A DNA stretch of 64,000 nucleotides from a phage. The DNA lies in NCBI GenBank assembly GCA_024683775.1, contig GCA_024683775.1_4106.1; one strand, 5' to 3'. This document shows positions 29,581-58,598 of this stretch, piece by piece. A program made the position numbers and the translations under genes. The first letter of the stretch is position 1; each line of letters begins with the position of its first letter. The notes under the pieces are model-generated. The model had not been told where the DNA came from. It saw only the letters and a list, made by a program, of their open reading frames with translations, and did not search any database.

Positions 29581-29587
29581 AGGTAAG

Positions 29588-29619: not shown

Positions 29620-29647
29620 TATTTCATCAACTGATGAGGATAACGAA

Positions 29648-30485: not shown

Positions 30486-30824
30486 ATGCTTGAGTTTTTT
30501 AATTCAGATACAATGCTTAGTATTACTTTGATTTATCTGTTTGGTTTTTTCTTTTATCATGCACTAGTTGTAGTACTATGGTATTTTAAAAAGAAAATCG
30601 TTTTCAAACTGTATCCTGATGGAAACATTTCACTACTTCTTTTCACTATTATCCAAGGTATGTTTGCAATTGTTGGTCTTATCGCACACTTAATTTATTG
30701 TGCTAATCCACAGTTGAACTCAATATCACAATATATTGTATTCCTTGGATTACTAATTTGGGTGCTGATATACTTGTTTAATCTCATCATTAATGGTAGA
30801 GCAAAAATTCGTGGGGACTTCTAA
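30486..30824 (+). CDS. small membrane protein, family B member 4
   Basis: hydrophobic segments; basic C-terminus. Confidence 0.5.
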   Translation: MLEFFNSDTMLSITLIYLFGFFFYHALVVVLWYFKKKIVFKLYPDGNISLLLFTIIQGMFAIVGLIAHLIYCANPQLNSISQYIVFLGLLIWVLIYLFNLIINGRAKIRGDF

Positions 30825-31171
30825 TGTTTGAATCTTATCTTGAGTTTTTAAAGAGTAGTTCTGTTGCACATTCAATTGCAGGGATTATTCTAACAGGTTA
30901 TGTAACATTTTGGGTAGTTATGTTTCTAGGATGGTATTTTAAACGACAATTCTATAAGCGTAATGGTGAAGATTTTATGAATTCTTTCATTAATCAATCG
31001 TTGTTTGCATCAACATTGATAGCATGTATTGTAGCAACACTCACAGGAAAGGTACTGCCAGCATTCTCCGCAGTTTACGGTACATTGGGTATGATATGTG
31101 TAGTTTTTTACTTGACCATTAAACTTTGTTGTGTTATGATTGAACTTCGAAACAAGATACCGGAGGAATGA
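30824..31171 (+). CDS. small membrane protein, family B member 5
   Basis: C-terminal ELRNKIPEE tail. Confidence 0.55.
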   Translation: MFESYLEFLKSSSVAHSIAGIILTGYVTFWVVMFLGWYFKRQFYKRNGEDFMNSFINQSLFASTLIACIVATLTGKVLPAFSAVYGTLGMICVVFYLTIKLCCVMIELRNKIPEE

Positions 31172-31506
31172 TGGAATATTTTTTACACTTACTGCCGTGG
31201 TATATGAAAGTTAGTACTATGTACTATATTCTTAGTGCTGGATTCTACTTTCTGATGTGGTTCTTCAAACGACCAATTTCAGTATTCATCTCTGATAACA
31301 TGCTGCAATTAAAATTACACGCATGGTTTGGTATGGCGATGTTCATGCCTATTATTCACTACTCAATGATTAGTAGAGGGTTCCGTTCCAATGGTGAACC
31401 AATTATATTAGTATTCTATTGGGGTTCAACTATTGCATATGTAAGTTTGTTGTTGTTCCCAGTCGTTCATAAATTACGTGCTAAAGTTCCTGATGCGAGG
31501 TACTAA
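31168..31506 (+). CDS. small membrane protein, family B member 6
   Basis: C-terminal KLRAKVPD tail. Confidence 0.55.
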   Translation: MMEYFLHLLPWYMKVSTMYYILSAGFYFLMWFFKRPISVFISDNMLQLKLHAWFGMAMFMPIIHYSMISRGFRSNGEPIILVFYWGSTIAYVSLLLFPVVHKLRAKVPDARY

Positions 31507-31820
31507 TGGATATCGTAACATTGATTTACACGCTTTATTCATTCTATTTTATTATGTGTTGGGTTGGATTTTTATTTGTATTGAAGATGTTTGATTATGT
31601 TGAAAAACAGATAAAAGAATTTTGTATTCCTTTTATTGGGTCAACCATAATTAGTATTACTTGTTTGTATTATTTGGTATGTGATCCACCTGTTAATACA
31701 GCAATGATTGACTTCATGTTATTACCAACAACTGTTATTTTTTTATGTAGTCTGATGCCACCGATTAGTCGTGGGCTAACCGAATTTAGACGCAATCAAA
31801 AGCGTAAACGAGGGATGTGA
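31506..31820 (+). CDS. small membrane protein, family B member 7
   Basis: hydrophobic segments; basic C-terminus. Confidence 0.5.
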   Translation: MDIVTLIYTLYSFYFIMCWVGFLFVLKMFDYVEKQIKEFCIPFIGSTIISITCLYYLVCDPPVNTAMIDFMLLPTTVIFLCSLMPPISRGLTEFRRNQKRKRGM

Positions 31821-32188
31821 TGGAAATTGCACTTATTATATTAACTGCTATGTTGTTTATTAGTACAATTGTTATTATTGGCAAGTTCTTCTGTGTATCC
31901 TTCTTGGAAACCGTATACGATGAAATTGCTGATGACTATGAATTACATGCAGGATTTTTTACTACGTATTGGATTAGTTTATTACTACTTATCACTGTAT
32001 GGATTTTACATATATTCAAATGGGGTATGGTAGATGGTGATCCAGTACTGGCAATTATCTGTGTAGTGTTTGGTCTACTCGGTGGTGCTGTCCATAATCT
32101 GATGGTAATTTGGCAAACCGTACAATATGTATTAGTTCCACATTTTCAGAGAATGCACCAAAGCATCAAATACCGCAAACGAGGATAA
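31817..32188 (+). CDS. small membrane protein, family B member 8
   Basis: hydrophobic segments; basic C-terminus. Confidence 0.5.
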   Translation: MMEIALIILTAMLFISTIVIIGKFFCVSFLETVYDEIADDYELHAGFFTTYWISLLLLITVWILHIFKWGMVDGDPVLAIICVVFGLLGGAVHNLMVIWQTVQYVLVPHFQRMHQSIKYRKRG

Positions 32189-32189
32189 C

Positions 32190-32552
32190 ATGAATAATAT
32201 TGAATTATCTTTTATTGGTCAATTAATGGTAATGGCGTATACATTTATCTTCTCACTGAATGCATTCGTGTGCATTGGGAAATACTTCCATAAGCGACCA
32301 TTATCAAATATATATGATGTAATACAAAGGAGATATAGTCCAGCATATACTGTGTTGAGTACAGCATTCAATTTTGGTTTTATTCTAATGCTGGTTGCAT
32401 TATTAACATCGAGTTCGAATTTTATAACATTTGGTATTATGGTATGTTCACTAACACTGTGTGTGGTTATTCTCTGTGCATCCGTTGAGTTGCTGGCATG
32501 GATGTATAATAAGATTTCCGAAATCCATGAGCGTTTAGGTAAGAGGAACTAA
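32190..32552 (+). CDS. small membrane protein, family B member 9
   Basis: hydrophobic segments; basic C-terminus. Confidence 0.5.
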   Translation: MNNIELSFIGQLMVMAYTFIFSLNAFVCIGKYFHKRPLSNIYDVIQRRYSPAYTVLSTAFNFGFILMLVALLTSSSNFITFGIMVCSLTLCVVILCASVELLAWMYNKISEIHERLGKRN

Positions 32553-32553
32553 A

Positions 32554-32925
32554 ATGAGTTATCGTGAAATATTTTCGATCATTACTATTATTGTGTTTAG
32601 TTTAGGTTCTTTGATTTGGTTATTGTATTACTTCTGTGTAACCCCAGTATATAATATGCTAAATTCAGTTCGCTCTGATGTTGGTATTGTTTCTTTTATT
32701 ATCTTCATGGCATATTATATGCTAAGTATCACAGGTTTGGTTTCGGTTGTTATCTTTGACCTTGGACCGAATCAAGATGGCATGGAGATGTGGGAATTGA
32801 TAACGATGTTTGCATGTATGATACCTGCATTTGGTGTATGTGCTGGTGTATTTTATGGGTTGTGTAAAGGTGTGAACTACTTAAAAAATATCCACAATAC
32901 TATTCGTAAAAAACGTATGTTATAA
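32554..32925 (+). CDS. small membrane protein, family B member 10
   Basis: hydrophobic segments; basic C-terminus. Confidence 0.5.
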   Translation: MSYREIFSIITIIVFSLGSLIWLLYYFCVTPVYNMLNSVRSDVGIVSFIIFMAYYMLSITGLVSVVIFDLGPNQDGMEMWELITMFACMIPAFGVCAGVFYGLCKGVNYLKNIHNTIRKKRML

Positions 32926-32961: not shown

Positions 32962-34086
32962 TTAATTATCTAAGCCACCAATTACACTGAACTGTGTGGT
33001 AACGTCTGAACTATTATCTATGTAAGTTCTTCTACCAACATAATATAGTTGTCCTTTTGCTTGAATAAAAGTTACGGTCCCTGTATTAAATGTTATAATA
33101 TCATTGTATGTAATGTCAGGTGGTAGTGCTGCTGATAACGCAGTAACTTTACTTAATGCAGCACTAGTACTACCATTTATACCAGCAGCAATACTACCAG
33201 TACCATAGAACTTATTATCTTTACCAATGAATACGTTGGCTGATGCTTGTGTAGCTGATGTTATTGCCTTACCAATTTGGAATGCGGTTCCTATGGTGTA
33301 TGGTGTGCTCCTGGCAGCGTCTATGCTTTGTGTATATCCATCCCCTAGCTGACCATTAACTTTGTCACCACATGAGTATAGAGTACCATTGAGGCTGTAT
33401 ATGATCCCACGGTTAGAGAAGCTAACAGCTTCTGCATTAGTCCATACTGGTGCGGTGTATGAGTTTACACGACTCGCGGTAGTTCCTAGACCTAGTATAC
33501 CATATGTGTTATCACCACATCCAAACCATTGCCCAGAACTGTTTTGATAGAACACTGAACGTTCTGTTGATTCCATGCGTACAGCATCCACAGCACCACT
33601 TTTAACGAACGAAGTGGATGAGGATGTAGTACCAGTACCCAATGCACCATAAGTGTTTGTACCAATCGCATAGATTGATCCTAGTGGTGTCATAACACGT
33701 ATGCAGTTATATCCCAATTGAACTTTACATTCAAATAGGTTGTCCCATATTTCAGGAACAGCAGAAAATAAATTTGTAATTTCGAACCATGATGTTGTCG
33801 AACCAGTTAATCCTATACTGCTTTTGTTTCCTAAAATGAAAACAGTTTTGTCCTTCTTAATTATCCATGATGATAGGAAACCTATCTCACAGCTATGAAC
33901 ATTTGATTCTATTTGGGTAATATAATACTTAACTGTGTTATCACCCATGAATGCCGCAGCACCGGATGCAAAAAGGTTTCCAGTTTGTTTATTTAAAATG
34001 TAGTTATTGTTTCCATATACACTAACATCATAAGAACTTTCTTGTTTTTCGTTCCCATAATCAAATAACAATACGAAAGGTAACAT
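32962..34086 (-). CDS. MLPF-leader RCC1-like beta-propeller paralog A1 (FDYGN subtype)
   Basis: N-terminus MLPFVLLFDYGN; GDNTYGILGLG and GDKVNGQLGDG repeat motifs; AAGGAG RBS. Confidence 0.65.
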   Translation of the reverse strand: MLPFVLLFDYGNEKQESSYDVSVYGNNNYILNKQTGNLFASGAAAFMGDNTVKYYITQIESNVHSCEIGFLSSWIIKKDKTVFILGNKSSIGLTGSTTSWFEITNLFSAVPEIWDNLFECKVQLGYNCIRVMTPLGSIYAIGTNTYGALGTGTTSSSTSFVKSGAVDAVRMESTERSVFYQNSSGQWFGCGDNTYGILGLGTTASRVNSYTAPVWTNAEAVSFSNRGIIYSLNGTLYSCGDKVNGQLGDGYTQSIDAARSTPYTIGTAFQIGKAITSATQASANVFIGKDNKFYGTGSIAAGINGSTSAALSKVTALSAALPPDITYNDIITFNTGTVTFIQAKGQLYYVGRRTYIDNSSDVTTQFSVIGGLDN

Positions 34087-34163
34087 GATAAAATCTCCTT
34101 GTGTTATACTTTATTTAATCATTTTATAATGTACAATTTTACAGCGATTTAATTGAGGTACTC

Positions 34164-34814
34164 ATGAATAAAAGAAGTAAGTTCTATCAAGAATATTTCA
34201 CTAAACATAAACGATTCACAAAAAAATACTTTACATCATCCCACCGACCAGTTGCAAGTTACAAACGTCCTAATACTAACTATCTTGCTGGTGGCAAGTT
34301 TAGTGCAAAGTTCGAATTACTTATGCGTGAAAAGAATATCAAGATGCATTACGCAGAGACGAGAAAAAACTCATCAATTATTTGCTCTGATTTTCTTGAG
34401 TACGGTTGCTTAACTTATAAATTCAATGATGTATATTTGTATATTGATGTTGATTGTAACAGTACTCTTATGTTTGAGATTTCAATTCACCCAAATCACA
34501 ACCGTTATATAAACATTAACTTGATTGATAAAGTACTGATTGGTATATCTAGTACTGATGGTGGTGGATTTGAATTTATTGCTTCAAAATATGATGAAGA
34601 TTTCGTACTTTACCCAGTACTTGATGATGTGAAAGATATTCTCAATTCATTAAAAGGAAGTCAATACAAATTACCTGAAGAACAGCTATTTCAGTACTCA
34701 CTTATTCATGATGATATCGAGATATACTTAGAGTGTGCGAGAATCTTGGAGTATCTTTATAATGAACTAACAACAACTGGTAAAGTGACTGCATTCACAT
34801 TATATAATATGTAA
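34164..34814 (+). CDS. hypothetical protein embedded in the - strand array
   Basis: 216-aa ORF diverging from A1, with TATAAT-like box and GAGG RBS upstream. Confidence 0.5.
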   Translation: MNKRSKFYQEYFTKHKRFTKKYFTSSHRPVASYKRPNTNYLAGGKFSAKFELLMREKNIKMHYAETRKNSSIICSDFLEYGCLTYKFNDVYLYIDVDCNSTLMFEISIHPNHNRYININLIDKVLIGISSTDGGGFEFIASKYDEDFVLYPVLDDVKDILNSLKGSQYKLPEEQLFQYSLIHDDIEIYLECARILEYLYNELTTTGKVTAFTLYNM

Positions 34815-34821
34815 AAGAAAT

Positions 34822-34841
34822 GCCAGTACTCAAGTACTGGC
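34822..34841. terminator. array hairpin GCCAGTACT-CA-AGTACTGGC (bidirectional)
   Basis: perfect 9-bp stem built from two AGTACT sites, between convergent genes. Confidence 0.55.
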
Positions 34842-34847
34842 ATTATA

Positions 34848-35981
34848 TTAAACTGGTGGAGAATTATATGGCTCAAATTTATAAGTTGTCGTAGTAGTAC
34901 CAGCAAGGACGTTGTTAGCTAGTATGTACATAGTCCTGTAGTCGATTACCACCACAGTAATACTACCACCAAAAGCATAGTCTGTTATGTTATTAGTGTT
35001 GAATGGTAAATTAGATGAACTGGTCCATGTATTAGCTGTTGTGCTATTTGTACCATTGGAATAGCCGACACTAGATGTACCAGTTGTCCATAAGTTTCCA
35101 TCATTGAACAACGATACATGGTTAGCTGTATATGATTTATTAGGTATAGAACTATCAATTGGTGTATTCCAAACTTTAGTAACCCATGTTGTAACTTCTG
35201 TATTATTAGTAACGCCATTACCTAATGAACCATTTATTGGTATACCTCTTATATAAGAAGTGTTAGTACTAGGGTCAACATATCCAAATGTATATGTATC
35301 AAATGCAAATTGAAAACAATCAGAACTCGGTAATGTGTACAGTAATGTATATGAAGACGTGATTATTGATGAATTTGTACCGTTCACGCCTTGGTATAAA
35401 ATACCACTAGCCAATATTTGATTATTATTTTTTGTTATAGTGTTCATTAACGGATATGTTTTCACATCACGCACATCATTAGTCACATATGTTTGTGTTG
35501 ATAATGCAACTTTACTACCATTACCTATAACCCCTGTATTTGCACCACTCCCATAAAGTGAACCATCATTCAAAAGAACCATTGTAACATTACCATTTCC
35601 CGTAATTGTTTTAATATTACTAACATCCACCGCAGCAAATACAGTTGATGTTAAATCAGTGAAACGTGTATAATGTGATGTTGTGCCATTGATTGGTGTC
35701 GCAAAACCAGAATACAAAATTCTATTTTCTTTGGTAATAAGGAATGTTCCAGTAACACCGTTTGAATGGATATCAATAATATTATCGCCCATTAATACCC
35801 AATCACTTACGAATGTTGTACCAGCACCCAACCCATATGTCGTATTGTATCCACGTCCATACACTCTACCATCACTGAGTAATGTTACCACACATTGACC
35901 ACCACCACCAAGTATAACTTTTTGGATAGTACTCTTTACTTTTACATTCCCGTACTTAACCATTCTTGCAAAAGGTAACAT
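34848..35981 (-). CDS. MLPF-leader RCC1-like paralog A2 (VKYGN subtype)
   Basis: N-terminus MLPFARMVKYGN; Gly/Ser/Thr/Asn-rich repeats; only 12 nt downstream of A3. Confidence 0.65.
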   Translation of the reverse strand: MLPFARMVKYGNVKVKSTIQKVILGGGGQCVVTLLSDGRVYGRGYNTTYGLGAGTTFVSDWVLMGDNIIDIHSNGVTGTFLITKENRILYSGFATPINGTTSHYTRFTDLTSTVFAAVDVSNIKTITGNGNVTMVLLNDGSLYGSGANTGVIGNGSKVALSTQTYVTNDVRDVKTYPLMNTITKNNNQILASGILYQGVNGTNSSIITSSYTLLYTLPSSDCFQFAFDTYTFGYVDPSTNTSYIRGIPINGSLGNGVTNNTEVTTWVTKVWNTPIDSSIPNKSYTANHVSLFNDGNLWTTGTSSVGYSNGTNSTTANTWTSSSNLPFNTNNITDYAFGGSITVVVIDYRTMYILANNVLAGTTTTTYKFEPYNSPPV

Positions 35982-35993
35982 AATTATTCTCTC

Positions 35994-37112
35994 CTATATT
36001 ACTATTTTTTCTTCAGTATATATTAATGCTTTATCTGATGTAGTGTAGCTAGGTATTGGGAACAATCTACCTGCAACATAACATATGTCATTTTCTATAT
36101 AATATGATGAATATGTACTGTCAAAGAATATAGGCTCTATTGAAGTTGGTGCATTGATCATCTTAGTAAATGCTGGAACCGGTCCAGGTGTAAAACTTGC
36201 ATTTGTACTGGTAAACCCATAATTATCGGAAACTGCTGACACATAATAATCGGTTCCATTCTGGATTATTATTTTTGCTGCAACCGAACTACTATTATAA
36301 ACGATTTTAGGAAATGCAAATGTGGCTGCATTATATGTGAATGGTAACGAACAAGAAACTAAAGTTGCAGTTGCACCAGACACTGATGTTCCATATTTAT
36401 TGTTGACGTTTCCTCTGGCAAATACACCACTAGCGGTATTAAGCACTACAACAGCAACTGTTGCTGAATAACCCAAAACCCCTGTTGCAATTTGGGTAAA
36501 CCCAGTGGAACTAGGTATTTGACTAGCGTTTGGGTTTCCAGAACCATAAAGAACACCAGAATTAGTTAATGCCCATACGTTTGCATACATTAATTTGAAT
36601 GACTTGACATCACTGACTATCGTATTTTTAACAAAAGATGTACTACTACTTGGTGTGCTCATTCCAAATATATATTGCGTATTCGTACCAATGAACCACA
36701 ATTCTCCTAAGTTTGTCAGTACCCCTATACAGTTACGTAACGCATTAACTTGAACATCAATTATTGTACCAGTTACTGCATTAAAAATCGAACTACAATT
36801 AACAAATATATTACTTGTTGGATAACCAAATGCAGTAGTTTCACCGCTGCACATATACTGACCGTCTTTGAGTTTTAAAAATGTCCACGTAGGTGAATAG
36901 TAAAAGTCATCAACATTTTCATATATCAAAGTCCACTTATCAGCCGATGTAGTAACATCACCAAACTTACCATTTGTATTTGGTCCCGCAGCATATAATT
37001 TACCACTTGTTGTTAAGAATAAAATACCACTAGTTCCGTCCGTGACCATTTTACGTATTTTCGTAACTTCTCTTACATTTCCGTACTTAACCATTCTTGC
37101 AAAAGGTAACAT
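35994..37112 (-). CDS. MLPF-leader RCC1-like paralog A3 (VKYGN subtype)
   Basis: N-terminus MLPFARMVKYGN; preceded by conserved hairpin/A+T-box/AAGGAGG cassette. Confidence 0.65.
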   Translation of the reverse strand: MLPFARMVKYGNVREVTKIRKMVTDGTSGILFLTTSGKLYAAGPNTNGKFGDVTTSADKWTLIYENVDDFYYSPTWTFLKLKDGQYMCSGETTAFGYPTSNIFVNCSSIFNAVTGTIIDVQVNALRNCIGVLTNLGELWFIGTNTQYIFGMSTPSSSTSFVKNTIVSDVKSFKLMYANVWALTNSGVLYGSGNPNASQIPSSTGFTQIATGVLGYSATVAVVVLNTASGVFARGNVNNKYGTSVSGATATLVSCSLPFTYNAATFAFPKIVYNSSSVAAKIIIQNGTDYYVSAVSDNYGFTSTNASFTPGPVPAFTKMINAPTSIEPIFFDSTYSSYYIENDICYVAGRLFPIPSYTTSDKALIYTEEKIVI

Positions 37113-37157
37113 AATTCCCTCCTTTATTCTTTATACTATATTTAATCAAAAAGAAAA

Positions 37158-37176
37158 GCCAGTACTCTGTACTGGC
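37158..37176 (-). terminator. array cassette hairpin GCCAGTAC..GTACTGGC plus T-run
   Basis: inverted repeat read directly; T-rich tract follows on the - strand. Confidence 0.5.
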
Positions 37177-37182
37177 ACTATA

Positions 37183-38532
37183 TTACAACAAATGTATTTC
37201 TGTGAGTGTTTGATATGTTACACCGTTGTACACACCTCTCCAATATACCTTACCTTCAGTACTAACCACTAATAATCCATATGTTGTAAACCCAAGAGTA
37301 CCACCAACATACATAGCATCTTTGATTTTAATACCAATGTCTTCATATGTAAATGAAGCGACTGCTCCCGCTTGCCATGAAGGACTAGCATAGTAATCAC
37401 TATAAACACCATGTGCTTTATATATTGATGTTGTTCCGGGTTCAAAAATTACAGTTCCACAGTAGTTCATTCGTATTTTGGTACTGGATGAAGTTGGTAC
37501 ATTTATACCTACATCATCTTTAATCCCTGTAGTTAGGACGTTAAAACCACCCGCTACACGGTTGACGTCATTCGCACCGATTAGAAACATACCAACGTTG
37601 TAGCCCATATAATACACACTACTTGTACCATTCCAGAAAGAAAAACCACCACCATTACCACAGCGATATAGTTGTGAATTTGAGCAGTACATCATGCCTT
37701 CGTTTGTTGCATCAAAATCATCTGCTGTTCCGATTACAGCCACTGTAGTCCACGTTTTAATCACTTGGTTTGTACTAGCTGGTTTTTGTATACCATATCG
37801 TATATTATATCCCTTACCTACGATTGTACCATCTTCTAATTTGGCATAAAGTACAGGTCTATTACCAACAAAATACACATTATTATGTGACATGTCTATT
37901 GTGCATCTTAATGAAACTGCTTTTTGTGTCAATTGATTATCTTTAGTAAAAGAAGTAAAGTAGTAATCTGATGTGGAGTTGTTTATTAAACCTTGAATCG
38001 ACAAACCCATATACCAGATTTCACCATTAGTGTTCAATGCTGCCAAAATACAACTATATTTTGAAGTGTATGCTGGGGTTAATGATGTTGCTGGACCTTT
38101 ATCATATCCACCACAGAATACCATTTCCACAACTTCACCTACGTTAGAAAAATAAGAAGATACATTTATAAAACCATTTGTTATAAAAGGTGCTGTAGTT
38201 ATACTTGAATGTGTGAATATTCCATTTGCATATACACCACAAAAATGATATGAACCATCATTATCTTTAACTATTATTCCATTTGATAGTAGCCAAAAAT
38301 TGTTTACATTTTTTCGTACTAATTCAATTCCTGTACCATTGGTTGGTGTTATACCAAAAGAAACATATTTTGTTTGACCAATACCATATAAATTTCCATT
38401 TGATGCTAATATTGCACCAAACCAATTACCACCACCATTCCTATCATGACCCATACCAATGGAGTCGAATTTCTTTACAGTTGGAACATCTACTGTATTC
38501 CCATAATCAAATAATCTAACAAAAGGTAACAT
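37183..38532 (-). CDS. MLPF-leader paralog A4 (FDYGN subtype, 449 aa)
   Basis: N-terminus MLPFVRLFDYGN; longer, more divergent body. Confidence 0.6.
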   Translation of the reverse strand: MLPFVRLFDYGNTVDVPTVKKFDSIGMGHDRNGGGNWFGAILASNGNLYGIGQTKYVSFGITPTNGTGIELVRKNVNNFWLLSNGIIVKDNDGSYHFCGVYANGIFTHSSITTAPFITNGFINVSSYFSNVGEVVEMVFCGGYDKGPATSLTPAYTSKYSCILAALNTNGEIWYMGLSIQGLINNSTSDYYFTSFTKDNQLTQKAVSLRCTIDMSHNNVYFVGNRPVLYAKLEDGTIVGKGYNIRYGIQKPASTNQVIKTWTTVAVIGTADDFDATNEGMMYCSNSQLYRCGNGGGFSFWNGTSSVYYMGYNVGMFLIGANDVNRVAGGFNVLTTGIKDDVGINVPTSSSTKIRMNYCGTVIFEPGTTSIYKAHGVYSDYYASPSWQAGAVASFTYEDIGIKIKDAMYVGGTLGFTTYGLLVVSTEGKVYWRGVYNGVTYQTLTEIHLL

Positions 38533-38542
38533 ATATTCCTCC

Positions 38543-49478: not shown

Positions 49479-50651
49479 TTATGGTAAAATAATAGCTTGT
49501 AACGAACTCATACCCAATGTTGGAACACTCGCCTGTGGTGCTGGTGCATTCACTTTTGGTGATGAAACCGCATATGTCATTCCTGAACCCAAATCTGGAT
49601 CAAAAACTACAGCACAATAATTCCCACTATATATAAGTCCATTCTTGTATCCTTGTGCACTTTGAATGCATTTCGTGAACGTCCCAATATCTGTAGTGGC
49701 ATTTATTAAGTTCCTCCCACGATAACCGCAGGTGTATATGAAATTATCATCGCCTATGTACATACTAGAATCCCCAGCAGAACTACATAGATACGACATA
49801 TAAGCACGCATGTTTTTAGGAGCAACTGACAATGTACCAGCATAGAATTTATTATTCGAACCCGAAATATCACCATCACCCAAAGCACCAAAACTCCCCC
49901 AACCAGTACCATAATATCTCTTATCACTCAAGAATATAATACAGTTGTTATTACACATCTTGACTTGATATATCAATGAAGGATCAACCCCAGGGAATGA
50001 TTCAGTGTATGTTAGAACAGCCAGATCAGTACTAGCATTACATTGATGATATGTATTAGTACCAGAGGACAATATTGTACCATCAACTAATAGAATCCTC
50101 GAAGTGCCAGTACCAGCAATACAAGCAACAGCATTACCTGTATATATTTGTCTGAAAGTAAAGAAACCAACAGTCTTACTCCCCTGTCCACTCCAACCAG
50201 TATTATCAACACCACATGCCCATACTGAACCATCTTGCATGATCATCATTACACCATAACGTTCTATTGAAATATAGACAATCTTCGTAGTATCAACTGC
50301 ACTAAATCTAGAAGTTATATCAGTCCAAACCTTTACACTCACCGCCGTCGCACCGAAAGTAGGATCTTCCCCTGCTATCATTATCCTACCATTGTTAGTC
50401 AGATACATTGTCTGACTATAACCAGTACTACAAAACTTAACACTATCAGTCTCTGGAACTTTTAACCACTCGTTGTAACGTGTTACGTTAGTGTTATTAC
50501 CTAACTGATAATAGTTATTCATCCCAGATACATATAACACACCATCCTTTATTAAACTATAAGTCGCACTATAGTCACTACAGGTATAACGTGTACCCAC
50601 AGGTGGCTCAACGACGTTCCCATAATCAAACATTCTAACAAAAGGTAACAT
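49479..50651 (-). CDS. MLPF-leader paralog A14 (FDYGN subtype)
   Basis: N-terminus MLPFVRMFDYGN. Confidence 0.65.
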   Translation of the reverse strand: MLPFVRMFDYGNVVEPPVGTRYTCSDYSATYSLIKDGVLYVSGMNNYYQLGNNTNVTRYNEWLKVPETDSVKFCSTGYSQTMYLTNNGRIMIAGEDPTFGATAVSVKVWTDITSRFSAVDTTKIVYISIERYGVMMIMQDGSVWACGVDNTGWSGQGSKTVGFFTFRQIYTGNAVACIAGTGTSRILLVDGTILSSGTNTYHQCNASTDLAVLTYTESFPGVDPSLIYQVKMCNNNCIIFLSDKRYYGTGWGSFGALGDGDISGSNNKFYAGTLSVAPKNMRAYMSYLCSSAGDSSMYIGDDNFIYTCGYRGRNLINATTDIGTFTKCIQSAQGYKNGLIYSGNYCAVVFDPDLGSGMTYAVSSPKVNAPAPQASVPTLGMSSLQAIILP

Positions 50652-50724
50652 AATAAAATCTCCGTAATTAAATTATATAGTATTTACAAAAAATACCAGT
50701 ACATATTTCAGTACTGACCTATTA

Positions 50725-51846
50725 TTAAAAGGGCAACGGTAACTCAGTAAAAGTACTTACGTCCGGTAAACCATACATTGAATTAGCATCACCACAGTAA
50801 TACCACTTCGTAGAATCATGTACCACCGATAAACGCTGTGCACATAACACTTCCTGTATGTCATTAAACACCATCGGGACTAACTCATATGTATCCGCAT
50901 ATGAAGATTCACCACCACTCGCATGAAAAGTATTCGTCCCAGCATAAAATAACTGATTAGTGTTCTTACCCACAGCAAATGTCATCAATATCCCATCATT
51001 CGCCCATAAAGAAGAAAACTTATCAACACTACCAGAAAGCTCTGTGTAAGTACTCGTAATGGCACTCGCAGCCGCCGCATTACCCATCTGTTTATTCAAG
51101 TTCTGTCCAGCAATAAAATATCTCGTGCGTGCACTAGAATCAGTATATAATAACCCAGTGTTCGTAGTCATCATTCCAATGTCCTTAATCGTCATACCAG
51201 TCTGTGAATAACTTAGATACGAAGTTAAACTACCATTATTACCCAACGAACCGTTATCACTCATGCCACAACGATGTAATATACCACTTGTATCAACGTA
51301 GATAGTACTAACTAAACTCGTATACAACTCTTGTACATTATTCGCAATAAACACAGCAGTCGCCTTATTAGTAACCCCACCAAATGATAGGTTATTATCA
51401 AATCCCTTAGCGTATAATTGATTATTAGTAGTAACTAACCCAATCGCGTAATAAGATATTTTCATATCCCTTACAGTACTCAAATCTACTACCCCAAATT
51501 GATGCGTAACATCTGTCCATGTGAAAATCTGTGCACTACCAACACCACCCGTTTCAAACCATTTGTCACCACAGTACAATATGCGATTATCCTTAGTAAA
51601 GATAACTGTTACCAATCCACTACCACACGCAAACTTTACATCACTTCTAACCTTCGTCCAATCAAGTACATAGGTAGTGGTGTTATTACCTATACCTAAC
51701 TTGCCATAACGGTTATAACCACGCACCCACAAATCACCACTCTTAGTAATTAATAGTAATGCGTCTCCTGTACTTATTATTCGAAATCCCGAACTAGGAT
51801 CAGGTACTTCATTTCCATAATCAAACATTCTAACAAAAGGTAACAT
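50725..51846 (-). CDS. MLPF-leader paralog A15 (FDYGN subtype)
   Basis: N-terminus MLPFVRMFDYGN; body closely related to A18. Confidence 0.65.
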   Translation of the reverse strand: MLPFVRMFDYGNEVPDPSSGFRIISTGDALLLITKSGDLWVRGYNRYGKLGIGNNTTTYVLDWTKVRSDVKFACGSGLVTVIFTKDNRILYCGDKWFETGGVGSAQIFTWTDVTHQFGVVDLSTVRDMKISYYAIGLVTTNNQLYAKGFDNNLSFGGVTNKATAVFIANNVQELYTSLVSTIYVDTSGILHRCGMSDNGSLGNNGSLTSYLSYSQTGMTIKDIGMMTTNTGLLYTDSSARTRYFIAGQNLNKQMGNAAAASAITSTYTELSGSVDKFSSLWANDGILMTFAVGKNTNQLFYAGTNTFHASGGESSYADTYELVPMVFNDIQEVLCAQRLSVVHDSTKWYYCGDANSMYGLPDVSTFTELPLPF

Positions 51847-51891
51847 AATTCCCTCCTTTATTCATTATACTATATTTAATCAAAAATAAAA

Positions 51892-51910
51892 GCCAGTACA
51901 GAGTACTGGC
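51892..51910 (-). terminator. array cassette hairpin
   Basis: GCCAGTACAGAGTACTGGC inverted repeat. Confidence 0.45.
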
Positions 51911-51917
51911 ATAGTAT

Positions 51918-53045
51918 TCAAAAAGGTAAATCAATTTGCTTAGTAATAATAGTATCTAACGGTATTGAACACAATGAGAAATTCTTTCCACCCGTATTTT
52001 CAGGATTATATCCATTCATCCATACATTATTACCTTCGTAAAATGTATTCCAGTATAAAGACCCACTATATCGTGTATTCGAATTGAACGATGTAAAATT
52101 GAATTCTTGAAATGCTGTAAAATATGGAAGGGAACTTGAACTACTTCCCGTAAATGGGGTATGCCCAGTTGCTATTAGTTTGTTTGTATCTGCATTAATT
52201 AAAAATACAACACTAGTCGAATAGTCCAACGAATCAGGATGATATATATTACTCATATCACCTATAGTAAAACCAACATCAAAAACTTTACTATGTGCAC
52301 CACTACCAGCAAAAGTAGTTCCAGTTGCATATATTTTATTATCAGATGTTATCATTACAAAACCAACACCAGAAACAAAACTGCATTTTATATCATAAGA
52401 TATATCATCAAACAACGGAACAAATGTGGTTGCATCACCCGATGTTGCTTTAACTTGAAAGCTGTTATTTGAACCTGAACCATATACAGTTCCATCGTTT
52501 TTAATCTTAAACAATGTATCGCCAAGGTAACCGCCAAATATATTATCCACATTAGTGTCAAGTACAGTCCACGCTGAAACATAATTTTTATGTCCTAAAC
52601 CTAATGTACCACTTCGATTCCATCCTCTTCCATAAAGTGTTCCGTCTTTCATTAATATAAATGCTGTATAACCACATAACATTTTTTTAATTTGGGTAAC
52701 ATCTATACCAGTGAAATACACAGCCCAGTCAGTATATCCTTGTTGGAAAGTATTAGAATTCGTGAATGCATATGTTGAACCTGAACCATATATTTTATCA
52801 CCTTTAATAACAACGGAAAACGATCCTAACCATAAGTCATCAACTTCAGTTGTGATTTGTTGAACTGCTCCTAACGATACAAACTGTGTACTTAAACCCG
52901 CATTATAGTTTGAATCTTCACCGTGTGCATATACAGTGCCATCTTGCATTAGAAACATTTCAAGAGTGTAACTAACAACACTTTTCTTTATATTATTAAC
53001 TTCGATTATATTCCCATAATCAAACATTCTAACAAAAGGTAACAT
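51918..53045 (-). CDS. MLPF-leader paralog A16 (FDYGN subtype)
   Basis: N-terminus MLPFVRMFDYGN. Confidence 0.65.
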   Translation of the reverse strand: MLPFVRMFDYGNIIEVNNIKKSVVSYTLEMFLMQDGTVYAHGEDSNYNAGLSTQFVSLGAVQQITTEVDDLWLGSFSVVIKGDKIYGSGSTYAFTNSNTFQQGYTDWAVYFTGIDVTQIKKMLCGYTAFILMKDGTLYGRGWNRSGTLGLGHKNYVSAWTVLDTNVDNIFGGYLGDTLFKIKNDGTVYGSGSNNSFQVKATSGDATTFVPLFDDISYDIKCSFVSGVGFVMITSDNKIYATGTTFAGSGAHSKVFDVGFTIGDMSNIYHPDSLDYSTSVVFLINADTNKLIATGHTPFTGSSSSSLPYFTAFQEFNFTSFNSNTRYSGSLYWNTFYEGNNVWMNGYNPENTGGKNFSLCSIPLDTIITKQIDLPF

Positions 53046-53087
53046 AATTCCCTCCTTTATTCATTATACTATATTTAATCAAAAAAA

Positions 53088-53106
53088 GCCAGTATCAAGT
53101 ACTGGC
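53088..53106 (-). terminator. array cassette hairpin
   Basis: GCCAGTATCAAGTACTGGC inverted repeat. Confidence 0.45.
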
Positions 53107-53114
53107 ATATTAAT

Positions 53115-54263
53115 TTACTGCACAAATGACATATCGACTTCGGTATAATTAAGAACGTTCTGTCCAGCACTACCACCCATTACTACAAATGAAGCACCCG
53201 AATAATATAACTTCGAAGTGTCAGTAAGTATAAGTGAACCAGATGGAGTGCGTACCAAATTACACGAAGTATTAAACGAAGTATATGAAGGAGTATAGGA
53301 GTACTGATTATTATTATTACCAACACCTAATTGCCCAAACCTATTCGATCCAGAAGCATATAGAACTTCATCTGCTTTGACAATATGTGATGCCATGTTA
53401 CCAACACAAGTATATAGAGTATAAACTCCTGAACTCAATAATGTCGGAGTTTTATATTGTATATCAGTAGAAGAGGAAGTACCACCTGTACCAAATTCGT
53501 TCCCATATTGTGCACCGAACTGTTTACCACAAGCGTACAAATTATTATCCGATTTGATAAAAAATGTACTCTGATAACTTACATTAAAATCTATAACATC
53601 CGAAGAAATCATCGTCACCCCAGTAATAGAAGTTTGATTGCCCGTGCCCAACTGGTAGTAATAGTTAAAACCACAACCCCATAAAGTATTATCTTCTCGC
53701 AAATAAATGTTACCAACAGCCTTTTTAACCGAAGTTATAGTATCTACTCTTTTGAATGTGTTAAAAGAATTAATGTTTGTGCCATCACCAAATGATGATA
53801 TGTTCGATATATTGTTAGCTCCACAACAATACAATGTACCATCGTTTGTTATCAAATTCACCTTCATATCATAAAAACTACTCATGTATTTTATATCAGA
53901 AACATTAATACCACTTGATGTTATCCACGTAGTACAGTCCGTCCACAAAGTTTTTCTATCAGTTACACCAGTGAATGCCTTCGTGTTACCAGTGATAAAA
54001 ACTTTTCCAGTACCTTTCTCTTCATACAATTGACAATCACTACTGTTATCTTCCAATAGAACTCGTTTAACATTCTCCGCACAAAGAATAAATTTACTCG
54101 ATGCTACACCTGTACCAGTACCCCAATTCGTCGCAGAAGATGCATACAACTTGTCAGTATAAGTATCATGAAGATACATAGAATCACTGGAATATATTTT
54201 ATAACGACCAGAGTTGGTAGGAGCTTCATTTCCATAATCAAACATTCTTACAAAAGGTAACAT
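53115..54263 (-). CDS. MLPF-leader RCC1-like paralog A17 (FDYGN subtype)
   Basis: start set at MLPFVRMFDYGN at 54263; GSNRFGQLGVG motif. Confidence 0.65.
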   Translation of the reverse strand: MLPFVRMFDYGNEAPTNSGRYKIYSSDSMYLHDTYTDKLYASSATNWGTGTGVASSKFILCAENVKRVLLEDNSSDCQLYEEKGTGKVFITGNTKAFTGVTDRKTLWTDCTTWITSSGINVSDIKYMSSFYDMKVNLITNDGTLYCCGANNISNISSFGDGTNINSFNTFKRVDTITSVKKAVGNIYLREDNTLWGCGFNYYYQLGTGNQTSITGVTMISSDVIDFNVSYQSTFFIKSDNNLYACGKQFGAQYGNEFGTGGTSSSTDIQYKTPTLLSSGVYTLYTCVGNMASHIVKADEVLYASGSNRFGQLGVGNNNNQYSYTPSYTSFNTSCNLVRTPSGSLILTDTSKLYYSGASFVVMGGSAGQNVLNYTEVDMSFVQ

Positions 54264-54307
54264 ATTCCCTCCCTTATTCATTATACTATATTTAATCAAA
54301 AAGAAAA

Positions 54308-54327
54308 GCCAGTACTCAAGTACTGGC
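54308..54327 (-). terminator. array cassette hairpin
   Basis: GCCAGTACTCAAGTACTGGC perfect inverted repeat. Confidence 0.5.
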
Positions 54328-54333
54328 CTGTAT

Positions 54334-55470
54334 TTAAATTATTGTTGGTAATGGTAATGGTATAAATTCATCACTCGATGGCAAACCATATAACGTAGTT
54401 GCATTTCCAGAATAATACCATCCAGTTGAATCTTGCACTATAGATAGATAGGCTAACGATACCACCTTTGTTATATCATTAAACCCGTGTGGTACTTCTT
54501 TGAATGCAGATGAATATTCAACACCAGGATCACCAGAAGATAGTGTATTGTTAGTACCAGCATAATATAAAGTATTGCCATCTGTGCTTATAGCAAAAGA
54601 AAGAACAGAGTTATTCATATCACTCCACAAATCCCTAAACCTGCCTCTATATCCGGTTAATTCTGTATACGAATATACGTTTGTGGTATTTGAAGAAGAA
54701 TTACCTAGTTGATAATTTCTATTTTGACCTGCTATAACATATCTAGTGATACCATTAGTATCATAATATAATATACCAGAGTTTAATGTTGACATACCAA
54801 CTGCACATTCGGATGCAAATTCGGGAGCAGAGTACAAATTATAAGAAGTTAAATTTGTGCTAGTACCCAATGCTCCAGTATTGCTTATACCACAGCGGTA
54901 GTAACCACCAGTAGTACTAGAATATATAGTACCAGATAGAGAAGTGTAGAATTTTGAAACATTTGACGCAACTAATACAGCATTAACTTTGCTTGTTGAA
55001 CCACCAAATGATTGGTTATTATCATATCCTTTAGCATATAATCTATTATCATTTGTAAGTAATCCTACACAATAATAAGTTATTTTCATTTCACGAACTG
55101 TGCTTAGATTCACTGCACTAAATTGTGTCGTAACATCTTTCCATGTAACAACTTTAGAACTTGTCGAACCACCAGATTCAAACCATTGATCACCACAGTA
55201 GAAAATTTTATTATCTACAGTTAATACAACGCATACTAAATTACTAGCACAAGCAAACTTAACATCATCTCTAACTTTAGTCCACTCGGTTACATTCACT
55301 ATAGTATCAGTTCCTATACCTAATTTGCCATACGCATTATTACCACGCACCCATAATTCATTATCCTCGGTTATTAGTAATAATGAATTAGCACCTGCAA
55401 CAATATCACGTATTTTTAGTTTATCTGGTGCTACGTTCCCGTACTTAACCATTCTTGCAAAAGGTAACAT
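54334..55470 (-). CDS. MLPF-leader paralog A18 (VKYGN subtype), first gene of the array
   Basis: N-terminus MLPFARMVKYGN; extended -10-like TGATATAAT and AAGGAG RBS upstream. Confidence 0.65.
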   Translation of the reverse strand: MLPFARMVKYGNVAPDKLKIRDIVAGANSLLLITEDNELWVRGNNAYGKLGIGTDTIVNVTEWTKVRDDVKFACASNLVCVVLTVDNKIFYCGDQWFESGGSTSSKVVTWKDVTTQFSAVNLSTVREMKITYYCVGLLTNDNRLYAKGYDNNQSFGGSTSKVNAVLVASNVSKFYTSLSGTIYSSTTGGYYRCGISNTGALGTSTNLTSYNLYSAPEFASECAVGMSTLNSGILYYDTNGITRYVIAGQNRNYQLGNSSSNTTNVYSYTELTGYRGRFRDLWSDMNNSVLSFAISTDGNTLYYAGTNNTLSSGDPGVEYSSAFKEVPHGFNDITKVVSLAYLSIVQDSTGWYYSGNATTLYGLPSSDEFIPLPLPTII

Positions 55471-55574: not shown

Positions 55575-55802
55575 ATGACAAATACTTTTAAGTACTACCT
55601 CAATACTCTAAATGAACTAGAGTACGCGAAGTTTCTCGCGGATAGTTCGTGGCTAATTGAGCTAAAAACACATAACAGTACTGGATGTAACCTTATGCTG
55701 AACAATGCACTTGATACCCTTGTAGTGAGTATTTTACACAGCACCATCTGCGGGGATAGCAATAAACAATTATCAAAAATCTTAGTACTGGTAGCTCTAT
55801 GA
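55575..55802 (+). CDS. mini-protein paralog C1
   Basis: 75 aa; N-terminal MTNTFKYYLNTL; AAGGAG RBS. Confidence 0.5.
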   Translation: MTNTFKYYLNTLNELEYAKFLADSSWLIELKTHNSTGCNLMLNNALDTLVVSILHSTICGDSNKQLSKILVLVAL

Positions 55803-56011
55803 ACACTATGAACATTGAACAGTACTACATTGATGCACTACCAACAAAAGGTCTACGAGAAAGCCTACTGTATACACAAAATAATTATATAAACTTCAAA
55901 CATTGTCCTAAACTCTTGAACTCGTACAGGAATAATAAAATAAGAAATGCTGTACAAGGGGTAGAAAGTATGCAATACTATTACATCCTAACCCTTTTAA
56001 TCGAGCACTAA
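55799..56011 (+). CDS. mini-protein paralog C2
   Basis: 70 aa; N-terminal ...EQYYIDALP; ATGA overlap. Confidence 0.5.
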   Translation: MNTMNIEQYYIDALPTKGLRESLLYTQNNYINFKHCPKLLNSYRNNKIRNAVQGVESMQYYYILTLLIEH

Positions 56012-56012
56012 T

Positions 56013-56198
56013 ATGTATAAAGAATTCTACTGTAGTAAGCTGCACAAACAATACAGAGATTCATTTCCCAATGAACCTATGGATATGAATAGTCCCTTTT
56101 ATAAATTTGACTTCAGACTGGAGACACGTTATGCAATAGAACATCAATTTCCTGAAACTAAGTACTTATCTATCATGAACCTCATCTTTAAGTTCTAA
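56013..56198 (+). CDS. mini-protein paralog C3
   Basis: 61 aa; N-terminal MYKEFY. Confidence 0.45.
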   Translation: MYKEFYCSKLHKQYRDSFPNEPMDMNSPFYKFDFRLETRYAIEHQFPETKYLSIMNLIFKF

Positions 56199-56209
56199 AA
56201 GAGTACTAT

Positions 56210-56422
56210 ATGAAAACTATGAACATACACCAGTACTACTTAGATATTCTCCCTAAAGATGTACAGTTCATCCTTAAACAAGAATACAGTACTTTAAAAA
56301 ACCTTAAAAGAACCGCACCGAATGTATTAATCCTGCACCAAGAAAATGTAGTTGATAATATTCTACAAGGTGTACCAGGGACCGAGTACTTTAACATAAT
56401 AAGGCTAATTACATTACCATGA
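56210..56422 (+). CDS. mini-protein paralog C4
   Basis: 70 aa; close relative of C2. Confidence 0.5.
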   Translation: MKTMNIHQYYLDILPKDVQFILKQEYSTLKNLKRTAPNVLILHQENVVDNILQGVPGTEYFNIIRLITLP

Positions 56423-56604
56423 ATCATATATTATACTATTACCAAAATCTATCCGACAGGGACAAGTACACCCACAACTCCAATGTATGGTACTACAAAC
56501 GCGGTAGTATAAGAGACAAACAACATTACTTCTGTATTGCTATAAAAGAAGCACTAACAACTAAGTACACGTACAGAGCAGTACTGAAACTTATTGATAT
56601 GTAA
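56419..56604 (+). CDS. mini-protein paralog C5
   Basis: 61 aa; C-terminal YTYRAVLKLIDM. Confidence 0.45.
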   Translation: MNHILYYYQNLSDRDKYTHNSNVWYYKRGSIRDKQHYFCIAIKEALTTKYTYRAVLKLIDM

Positions 56605-56614
56605 AGAGAATACT

Positions 56615-56797
56615 ATGAGCATTGAATTGTACTTAAGTAAATTACAGCCTGGCGATAGATTCATCTACAATAAGTTCGAATTCAACTACAAGAACGGGAG
56701 CAACAAATATCGTCGAGGATACCTATATACAAGCACAAGAGATGCACAAAACGAAAAGTACACATACAGAGAAGTACTTAAACTAATCTCTATTTGA
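56615..56797 (+). CDS. mini-protein paralog C6
   Basis: 60 aa from ATG 56615; C-terminal YTYREVLKLISI. Confidence 0.45.
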   Translation: MSIELYLSKLQPGDRFIYNKFEFNYKNGSNKYRRGYLYTSTRDAQNEKYTYREVLKLISI

Positions 56798-56805
56798 GGT
56801 AATAT

Positions 56806-56991
56806 ATGAATACATTTGAGTACTATACAAATAAACTATCTATGCCTGAAAGATCTCATCTCTATGTGTGGAGAAATGCGTATAAAAGCGGCAATAAACT
56901 TATACAAAGAAATTCCCTTACAGTGTGTACAAATTTAATTAAAGCAGAGTACCGCACATATATTGAAGTACTCAAACTGATAGCAATATAA
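56806..56991 (+). CDS. mini-protein paralog C7
   Basis: 61 aa; MNTFEYY...EVLKLIAI. Confidence 0.5.
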   Translation: MNTFEYYTNKLSMPERSHLYVWRNAYKSGNKLIQRNSLTVCTNLIKAEYRTYIEVLKLIAI

Positions 56992-56999
56992 GGTACTCT

Positions 57000-57179
57000 A
57001 TGCAAGAATTCTATATCTATAACCTCCAGCACAAAGATAGATACAACTATAATAAATTCCAAAGGTACTACACAGTCGGGAACAAAAGAGATAAAAAACG
57101 TTATCTACTCTCGTGTACAGTAGAAGCACAAAACGAAAAGTACACGTACAGAGAAGTACTTAAACTAATCTTAATCTAA
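57000..57179 (+). CDS. mini-protein paralog C8 (59 aa, below ORF-track cutoff)
   Basis: hand translation MQEFYIYNLQHK...YTYREVLKLILI. Confidence 0.45.
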   Translation: MQEFYIYNLQHKDRYNYNKFQRYYTVGNKRDKKRYLLSCTVEAQNEKYTYREVLKLILI

Positions 57180-57186
57180 GGTAGAC

Positions 57187-57375
57187 ATGAACACTTTTGA
57201 GTACTACTTCAATAAACTAAACCACATAGAACAAAGTATGCACAACTCATTTATTCAGCACCATCAATCATCTGCACATGGAATTAAAAATATATCGATT
57301 GAGATTATCACTACCCGTGTACTGTCATCTGAACGTTATATGTATATTGATGTACTGAAACTCATCTCTATGTAA
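57187..57375 (+). CDS. mini-protein paralog C9
   Basis: 62 aa; MNTFEYY...DVLKLISM. Confidence 0.5.
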   Translation: MNTFEYYFNKLNHIEQSMHNSFIQHHQSSAHGIKNISIEIITTRVLSSERYMYIDVLKLISM

Positions 57376-57383
57376 GGAATAAT

Positions 57384-57563
57384 ATGCAAGAATACTATAT
57401 AGAACACATAAGCATTAAAGACCGTTTCATGTACGACACCTTCGTGAAGTACTACAACCTGGCAACTAATAGTACTAAAAATATTAATCTCAATAGCTGC
57501 ATTCATCACGCACTAACAAAAGATAATCCCTTCAGGGAAATCCTCGCTCTCGCATCTGTATAA
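57384..57563 (+). CDS. mini-protein paralog C10 (59 aa, below ORF-track cutoff)
   Basis: hand translation MQEYYIEHISIKDRF... Confidence 0.4.
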   Translation: MQEYYIEHISIKDRFMYDTFVKYYNLATNSTKNINLNSCIHHALTKDNPFREILALASV

Positions 57564-57574
57564 AGGAAAACCAA

Positions 57575-58234
57575 ATGAAACTTAATGCACACAGCAAACA
57601 ATACCTTAAGCACTTTAAATACCTCAACAGTATTCAAGCAGAATCTTTTACACCAGCATATACGTATCACCCAAATGTACTAAAGAAACGAAATAAAAAG
57701 AAAAAATCCAGAAATGTTCTCGTATCTAAGAACCTCAAATCGTACTTGAAGAAAAATAGTATAGCTCTTGCTTTTATTAATATCTATAATACTGATTTAA
57801 AAGTATTGAGTACTAATACCAGCACAAAAGCACTAAAGAATGCATCTATCTATATACACATTGATAATATCCCGTGCACTATAATTCTATCTTTCGGGAA
57901 TGTATACTTCTTCGGGAATTGTAATAGCACCCATGATATCAGTACTGCACAATTCCAAATCGGCGATATGTACTGCATGGGTTCAGAAAAAATACACGAT
58001 AACATGCACTTCTTCCAAAAGCAACGTACTAACGAAACTGATACAGTACTGCAATTCCTCAAAGAACTAGAACACAAAGAATTATCCGAGGAAGAAGAAT
58101 TCATGTACAGTACTGTAATCGATAATCCAGGACTCTATAAAAACGCGTACAAACTAACAAAACATGTACAGGAACTTATCAGTACTGATAAGAAATTTCA
58201 TCACCTCATTACGTATATTTCAAACTATGTATAA
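57575..58234 (+). CDS. hypothetical 219-aa protein inserted in the mini-protein array
   Basis: ORF with basic KKRNKKKKSR patch; unrelated to flanking paralogs. Confidence 0.5.
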   Translation: MKLNAHSKQYLKHFKYLNSIQAESFTPAYTYHPNVLKKRNKKKKSRNVLVSKNLKSYLKKNSIALAFINIYNTDLKVLSTNTSTKALKNASIYIHIDNIPCTIILSFGNVYFFGNCNSTHDISTAQFQIGDMYCMGSEKIHDNMHFFQKQRTNETDTVLQFLKELEHKELSEEEEFMYSTVIDNPGLYKNAYKLTKHVQELISTDKKFHHLITYISNYV

Positions 58235-58409: not shown

Positions 58410-58410
58410 T

Positions 58411-58590: not shown

Positions 58591-58598
58591 CACATAAT

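Follow-up and report, generated by a model that had tools for sequence, protein, structure and literature searches.

An array of RCC1-like propeller genes with a common 12-residue N-terminal leader, a candidate virion-docking tag of Rak2-like jumbo phages

The 64,000-nucleotide stretch of phage DNA considered here (assembly GCA_024683775.1, contig GCA_024683775.1_4106.1; called the window below, always at its full length) contains an array of 18 genes for RCC1-like proteins at 32962–55470 on the minus strand, each starting with a closely similar leader of 12 amino acids (aa). The array was delimited by the listing of open reading frames (ORFs), a motif scan and a repeat search. In a six-frame regular-expression scan of the window with the pattern M[LI]PF[VA][RL]x[FV][DK][YF]G[ND], the leader was found 18 times, always on the minus strand and between 34086 and 55470, and nowhere else in the 64 kb. 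Number and strand agree with a preliminary description of this DNA, which had listed 18 co-oriented genes, but only 16 of these are full-length (369–449 aa), whereas one is truncated and one is frameshifted. The tandem arrangement also holds with one interruption, as a plus-strand gene for a 216-aa protein (34164–34814; phrog_34359, unknown function), which is not a member, lies between members 17 and 18. In phage vB_Ec-M-J, the closest relative, the gap at the matching position carries no annotation, and no relationship was detectable between the 216-aa protein and the product of a plus-strand gene of 219 aa.

Counted from the upstream end, member 1 (54334–55470, 378 aa) begins with MLPFARMVKYGN and is followed by members 2–6 with the leader MLPFVRMFDYGN, namely member 2 (53115–54263, 382 aa from the leader methionine, although the listed ORF runs upstream to a TTG at 54299), member 3 (51918–53045, 375 aa), member 4 (50725–51846, 373 aa), member 5 (49479–50651, 390 aa) and member 6 (48273–49403, 376 aa from the leader methionine). 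Member 7 (47060–48262, 400 aa, MLPFARMVKFGN) is translationally coupled and is overlapped by member 8 (45942–47051, 369 aa from the leader methionine, MLPFVRLFDYGN). Behind the frameshifted member 9 (44693–45872) come member 10 (43444–44622, 392 aa from the leader methionine, MLPFVRMFDYGN), member 11 (42214–43371, 385 aa, MIPFARIVKYGN, with several synonymous codon differences), the translationally coupled member 12 (41035–42204, 389 aa, MLPFARMVKYGD) and member 13 (39794–40963, 389 aa from the leader methionine, MLPFVRMFDYGN). Member 14 (38928–39722, MLPFARMVKYGN) is truncated to 264 aa, and member 15 (37183–38532, MLPFVRLFDYGN) is the longest with 449 aa. The array ends with member 16 (35994–37112, 372 aa) and the translationally coupled member 17 (34848–35981, 377 aa), both with MLPFARMVKYGN, and member 18 (32962–34086, 374 aa, MLPFVLLFDYGN).

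In member 9, an extra C near 45745 (GGA-C-GGA-AAC) separates a leader ORF (45693–45872, 59 aa) from the body ORF (44693–45769). The same split occurs in Ecwhy_1, EC.P1, WPEC3, SHEFM2K and slurp01, where it is annotated as two genes; as these isolates are 99.5% identical, its recurrence says nothing on selection. Member 9 is therefore probably an inherited pseudogene common to near-identical isolates. A programmed frameshift was considered and is unlikely, since the extra C lies in GGA-C-GGA and no slippery run is present.

The leaders fall into two classes, MLPFVRMFDYGN-like in 11 genes and MLPFARMVKYGN-like in seven, so that the leader, previously described as invariant, is better called near-invariant, while the shared block of 12 codons stands. 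This block begins at the ATG and stops at codon 12. Its three 12-nucleotide parts have mean pairwise nucleotide identities of 0.96, 0.76 and 0.79; the value falls to 0.44 directly behind the block and to about 0.31 in the bodies, and reaches at most 0.54 upstream. At the protein level, the bodies are only 16–27% identical to one another.

Most array genes are separate units with a hairpin (GCCAGTAC...GTACTGGC) and T-run, a box AAATATAGTATAA and a ribosome-binding site (RBS) AAAGGAGG. A representative intergenic cassette at 51847–51917 (minus strand) contains the terminator-like hairpin GCCAGTACTCTGTACTGGC with its T-run (51892–51910), the promoter-like box AAATATAGTATAA at 51865–51877 and the RBS AAAGGAGG. 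The box occurs ten times in the window, every time within the array, and terminator-like sites number 26 against 7.7 ± 2.8 expected. A scan for sigma-70 promoters in the window was uninformative (92 sites versus 103.5 expected), and a better candidate for the promoter is the box. Translational coupling to the preceding gene applies to at least four genes (starts at 48262, 47051, 42204 and 35981); those starting at 38532 and 34086 likewise do not have the hairpin-and-box cassette. Together, terminator, promoter-like box, RBS and leader form dispersed direct repeats of about 50–110 nucleotides, spaced by about 1.2 kb.

The bodies had been described as carrying RCC1-like motifs and as probable propellers, with profile searches and structure prediction suggested as checks, and both came out in favour of this view. 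Seventeen of the 18 members match Pfam profiles of the RCC1-like domain superfamily (WD40_RLD, RCC1 and RCC1_2; PF00415, PF13540 and PF25390); all 17 match WD40_RLD, with E values from 1e-7 to 4e-23 and scores that all lie under the 150-bit whole-domain cut-off of that model, whereas the gathering scores of RCC1 or RCC1_2 are passed by most of the 17. The remaining member 15 has no Pfam match and is recognised by a single profile, PHROG 4219 ('regulator of chromosome condensation'), which matches over the full length with E = 2.1e-15, compared with 2.3e-56 for member 4. An AlphaFold2 model of member 4 (predicted local distance difference test score, pLDDT, 88.4; predicted template modelling score, pTM, 0.87) shows a propeller at residues 20–373. 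Its best Foldseek matches in the Protein Data Bank are the RCC1-like domains of UVR8, RCC1, RPGR and HERC2, with template modelling scores of 0.67–0.76 and E values down to 2e-19, at about 15% sequence identity to RCC1. The model of member 15 is all-beta but of low confidence (pLDDT 53). As a statement of fold, the array bodies are thus predicted, from profiles and modelling, to be RCC1-like seven-bladed beta-propellers. In the model of member 4, leader and linker (residues 1–19) have a pLDDT below 50, appear disordered and lie outside the propeller, which argues that the leader is not part of the fold.

Judged by its sequence, the window comes from an Asteriusvirus-type jumbo coliphage of the 121Q, PBECO4 and phAPEC6 group. 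Array members are 70–100% identical to genes of vB_Ec-M-J, phAPEC6 and 121Q. The best single record covers at most 66% of an 11-kb stretch of the array, so the locus appears to turn over quickly. A comparison across related phages, which had also been suggested, places the same family (PHROG 4219) at the same locus in 121Q (121Q_234–248), PBECO4 and phAPEC6 (gp001–010 and gp549–551), with similar flanks, namely an array of membrane-protein genes on one side and of small genes on the other. Among the array loci compared, that of the window is the largest: it has 18 leader genes, whereas vB_Ec-M-J has 15, the first 20 kb of phAPEC6 contain 12 and 121Q has 10–11. Thus, the earlier impression that the arrangement had not been described from any phage could not be upheld. 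The genes are annotated in GenBank as 'regulator of chromosome condensation' or 'DNA condensation protein'; the phAPEC6 paper noted eleven RCC1-like proteins, reported members in virions and speculated on an inner-body or DNA-ordering role (PMC7247149), and the CBB paper, which also reports virion detection, lists the RCC1-like copies of 121Q and PBECO4 (PMC5259590). Prior knowledge therefore covers the gene family, the RCC1 annotation and the detection in virions. In the literature found, the arrays are treated as candidates for DNA condensation, and the N-terminal motif and the other folds that bear it are not mentioned; a search of the literature for the motif string was also empty. As far as the searched literature goes, three points are new: a 12-aa N-terminal tag that is independent of fold and retained, its concerted evolution within genomes, and a second, private tag in another myovirus lineage.

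Two leader-bearing genes of the relatives have no copy in the window. EcMJ_585 of vB_Ec-M-J (28781–29686; also P0046) lies at the upstream end of the array, encodes 301 aa with the leader MLPFVRMFDYGN and is annotated as 'virion structural protein'; inspection by eye suggests a Kelch-like body. In phAPEC6, a glycine-rich protein of 244 aa with the leader (FTVPAGVTEISVCVISPGG..., long glycine runs; phrog_4474) is encoded at 7325–8056 inside the array, and such proteins also occur in the 121Q array and in metagenome loci. This frame is unannotated in the phAPEC6 record, where gp004 (7716–8018) was called on a different frame.

The leader is not confined to propellers of the RCC1 type. At the syntenic locus of Pectobacterium phage CBB (Mimasvirus), nine genes start with MLPF[SPAT][RI]xxxY[GA]N, and behind this leader they encode Kelch propellers, Laminin_G_3/ConA-like proteins and other small beta proteins. 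When IMG/VR and JGI metagenomes were scanned with degenerate patterns, matches lay mostly on contigs of jumbo-phage size or on short contigs with the same arrays, where the motif stands at ORF starts behind a Shine-Dalgarno sequence. A leader profile run against 1.84 billion representative proteins yielded only 55 clusters. Three of these are repetitive false hits; in the others, the match lies at the N-terminus or within a few residues of it, or else follows an over-called upstream start. The bodies of the tag carriers clustered into 12 groups unlinked by BLAST, of which two glycine-rich ones look related by eye, and at least ten families are therefore claimed; the largest group, comprising 80 of the 123 proteins, is RCC1-like.

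From genus to genus, P3, R6, Y10, G11 and N12 are encoded by freely varying synonymous codons while the residues are kept, which indicates selection on the peptide. Within one genome, the leaders are nearly identical. Orthologous bodies of 91–97% identity carry different leader classes in different phages, and in several orthologue pairs (42204/gp010 and 47051/L002_2434) no block diverges more than the first 20 columns. The leaders thus evolve in concert, being homogenised within a genome and swapped between orthologues.

Carriers of the leader have been found in the virions of several phages. The virion proteome of phAPEC6 contains gp003, 005, 006, 007, 009, 010, 549 and 551 (PMC7247149, Table 1), and leaders were confirmed by sequence on the first six of these. 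In CBB, seven of nine leader carriers were verified as structural proteins by mass spectrometry (MS), including LamG, Kelch and unclassified bodies (PMC5259590), and GAP32 gp001 was also found in virions, as cited in that paper. In the table of virion proteins detected by MS in JP4, three sequences contain MLPF, of which JP4_581 and JP4_577 were confirmed to bear the leader (PMC12648861). Even phAPEC6 gp007, an orthologue of member 14 with a truncated propeller of 269 aa, is still detected in virions (PMC7247149, Table 1). Since the CBB carriers span LamG, Kelch and unclassified bodies and the truncated gp007 is still incorporated, virion association tracks the tag rather than the fold. A single virion preparation yielded several tagged members (PMC7247149, PMC5259590).

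The MS data also bear on the fate of the leader. Tryptic peptides from CBB virions comprise LFEYANVIIPPNYK (CBB_536, residues 7–20), YANVIVEYATK (CBB_548, residues 10–20) and LLQYGNK (CBB_553, residues 7–13), each preceded by R or K as trypsin predicts. Accordingly, the leader of mature particles is not cleaved off at YGN or behind it. A role as a cleaved processing signal, one of the options named in the preliminary description, was therefore discarded, and with it a cleaved propeptide like that of phage T4. The other option, a shared targeting or docking signal, gained support from a leader that is disordered in the model, stands on at least ten unrelated kinds of body and belongs to virion proteins in phAPEC6, JP4, CBB and GAP32.

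A parallel case was found by tblastn in Septuagintavirus (Vequintavirinae, about 140 kb), which has homologous propellers. Escherichia phage A5-4 carries three tandem RCC1-like paralogues (8007–11505 of the locus), of which A54_121 is 36% identical to the body of member 7; their tag, MLEM[LM]NL[GS], occurs nowhere else in the 145-kb genome. The orthologues of A54_119–121 in phage W70, W70_237–239, are all virion proteins, with spectral counts of 141–233 compared with 467 for the portal (PMC11370258, Table 2). As in the array, tandem propellers share a private N-terminal tag, but the tag is a different one, the copies are only three and Septuagintavirus does not belong to the jumbo phages. An address code would predict just this, homologous cargo with a tag specific to each lineage.

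The interpretation that is somewhat favoured takes the tag for a retained peptide of virion incorporation or docking that is carried by interchangeable binding modules, which may serve an accessory role in adhesion. The array would then be a repertoire of accessory virion proteins, each consisting of the 12-aa tag (consensus M-[LI]-P-F-x-R-h-h-x-Y-[GA]-N), a short, flexible and often proline-rich linker and a divergent RCC1-like propeller. In Rak2-like jumbo phages, the tag would bind a shared site of some structural component and load any body that bears it, the bodies would be the variable ligand-binding part, and the virion would most plausibly carry a mixed set of accessory adhesion modules. 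The array may grow, shrink and reshuffle by means of the terminator-promoter-RBS-leader repeats of about 100 nucleotides, while gene conversion may homogenise the leaders within a genome. That the tag itself mediates incorporation and that the modules are adhesins exposed on the surface is inferred in both cases. Propellers and lectin-like folds are typical binding scaffolds. RCC1-like domains also occur inside long phage proteins, one of which is annotated as a tail fibre (Pseudomonas phage Littlefix), and together with the lectin and propeller bodies and the lack of processing this favours surface display. Fibres and hexon-centre densities of unassigned composition have been seen on the capsid or sheath of 121Q, phAPEC6 and CBB (PMC5646251, PMC7247149, PMC5259590). 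A more far-reaching version can be put forward only tentatively, namely that MLPFxRhhxYGN is a self-sufficient, retained address label that loads any protein at one shared docking site of Rak2-like virions, as a natural plug-and-display system for a mixed and fast-changing set of at least ten kinds of binding fold, and that other large myoviruses have private tags such as MLEMLNL.

Several points speak against a docking tag on surface modules. Only member 4 gave a confident model. Residues 1–6 (MLPFxR) were not seen in the CBB MS peptide file, and the peptide counts in phAPEC6 and JP4 are low (1–5), which makes co-purification of single members possible. In addition, the original authors tentatively placed the RCC1-like proteins in the inner body that 121Q and phAPEC6 possess.

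Constant attachment elements with variable modules are known from other systems. Interchangeable tailspikes and fibres, such as the adaptor-bound spikes of SP6 and K1-5 and the branched receptor-binding proteins of CBA120, G7C and RaK2, likewise combine a constant N-terminal attachment element with variable C-terminal modules, several of them per particle, and the array shows the same combination of a constant N-terminus, variable distal domains and several kinds per virion. Among tailspikes and fibres, the anchor is mostly either a folded domain or, in trimeric fibres or beta-helices, a segment that forms the trimer, whereas the array element is a 12-aa peptide, disordered in the model, on propellers, and its 18 alternatives are many more. 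Cohesin-dockerin systems and the umbrella particles of Streptomyces similarly place diversified binding or catalytic modules on one scaffold through a shared docking element, with bet-hedging by a diversity of lectins (PMC13274773). They are analogies only and without homology; a dockerin is a folded domain of roughly 70 aa, and the systems are non-viral.

The main rival concerns the location of the modules. The leader could act like the capsid-targeting sequence (CTS) of phage T4 and bring inner-body or ejected proteins into the prohead via the scaffold or inner body, where they would be kept alongside the DNA and might later enter the host by ejection, to act as effectors or anti-defence binders. 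The T4 internal proteins (IPI, IPII, IPIII and Alt) carry a CTS of roughly 10 aa that is cleaved after Glu by the prohead protease, and Mullaney and Black reportedly noted in 1996 that they share a short conserved N-terminal tag. They are the closest precedent, as they too combine such a tag with unrelated, fast-evolving virion cargo and a highly plastic locus, and a shared tag on unrelated virion cargo is indeed what is found here. The inner body of 121Q and phAPEC6, for which the phAPEC6 authors proposed the RCC1-like proteins (PMC5646251; PMC7247149), and the low copy number in the MS data point in the same direction. However, the T4 CTS is removed, whereas residues 7–20, 10–20 and 7–13 are present in CBB virions and removal at an L/I-x-E site was not seen there. 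The tag does not resemble the CTS in sequence, and neither a Glu nor an L/I-x-E site is conserved in it: position 9 is D, K, E, Q, S or T. Furthermore, the bodies are large, beta-rich and presumably rigid propellers of 25–45 kDa and lectin-type folds, typical of surface binding, and W70 (137 kb), for which no inner body has been reported, still carries three such proteins (PMC11370258). An internal location is therefore regarded as the less likely one, although it keeps an appreciable share of the probability.

Less probable still is a tag that acts before or apart from assembly, as a chaperone handle, a stability or degradation signal or a translation-initiation peptide, with virion association coming from the bodies. 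The position at the extreme N-terminus would suit such a function, and the nucleotide identity of 0.96 in codons 1–4 within the genome could reflect constraints on the initiation region. Yet the choice of codons differs between genera while the peptide is kept, and translationally coupled members without an upstream cassette still keep the leader. Moreover, at least ten unrelated bodies would each need their own affinity for the virion, and a truncated propeller is still incorporated.

The annotation in the databases offers a further explanation, in which RCC1-type regulators of DNA or chromosome condensation organise the packaged genome. It is supported by the Pfam and PHROG names and was suggested for phAPEC6 (PMC7247149) and repeated for W70 (PMC11370258). 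On the other hand, the name was transferred from the fold only, at the low identity to RCC1 given above, and CBB carries Kelch and LamG bodies at the same locus with the same tag. RCC1 is an exchange factor for Ran, which bacteria and phages are not known to possess. Hypervariability and a flux in copy number from 10 to 18 leader genes per locus examined are also unlike a core packaging role. A literal role in chromosome condensation is thus unlikely, and this explanation is given very little weight.

Least of all is to be expected of the conserved 36 nucleotides being a DNA-level feature only, such as a tract of gene conversion or recombination, or encoding the closing (velcro) strand of the propeller: the direct repeats do include the leader, which is homogenised within the genome, and many propellers do close via an N-terminal strand, but both ideas are largely refuted by a leader that is disordered in the model, occurs on non-propeller folds, is kept as a peptide across genera despite different codons and is encoded by a block running exactly from the ATG to codon 12.

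Should the docking tag prove sufficient for incorporation, annotations as 'DNA condensation protein' in large myoviruses would change to tagged accessory virion modules. The tag would also be a handle for finding the docking component, perhaps related to the capsid and sheath fibres of 121Q, phAPEC6 and CBB, and a 12-residue tool to display foreign proteins on jumbo phages. The array shows how an address is homogenised within a genome while its cargo diversifies, and a role of accessory binders in host range or bet-hedging becomes testable. If the explanation turns out to be an ordinary one, the result would still be useful, although the analysis of the tag alone is new, the gene family and its association with virions having been published before.

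The regions beside the array contain further gene groups. At 30486–32925 (plus strand), seven tandem genes for hydrophobic, membrane-type proteins of roughly 105–123 aa, which belong to several distinct PHROGs of unknown function, converge on the array. The distant phage CBB keeps membrane-protein genes (CBB_539–547) beside its leader genes, which suggests a functional link between the two groups. Further away, a plus-strand block contains a single minus-strand gene (2214–3371), whose product of 385 aa has no leader and matches phrog_10468, 'virion structural protein', with E = 5e-157. On the other side of the array, about 20 tandem paralogues of 61–77 aa (e.g., phrog_11711) occupy 55575–60372 on the plus strand, with a GC skew of −0.15 to −0.22 and a strongly positive AT skew, opposite to the other plus-strand genes of the window. 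No tRNA or Rfam family was found in the window, and roughly 2 kb at 60400–62400 are also without convincing ORFs. The GC skew changes sign in this interval, which contains tandem repeats, among them a 53-bp unit (62201–62350; 2.8 copies, 97% identity), and might serve as an origin or for regulation, or mark one end of the genome.

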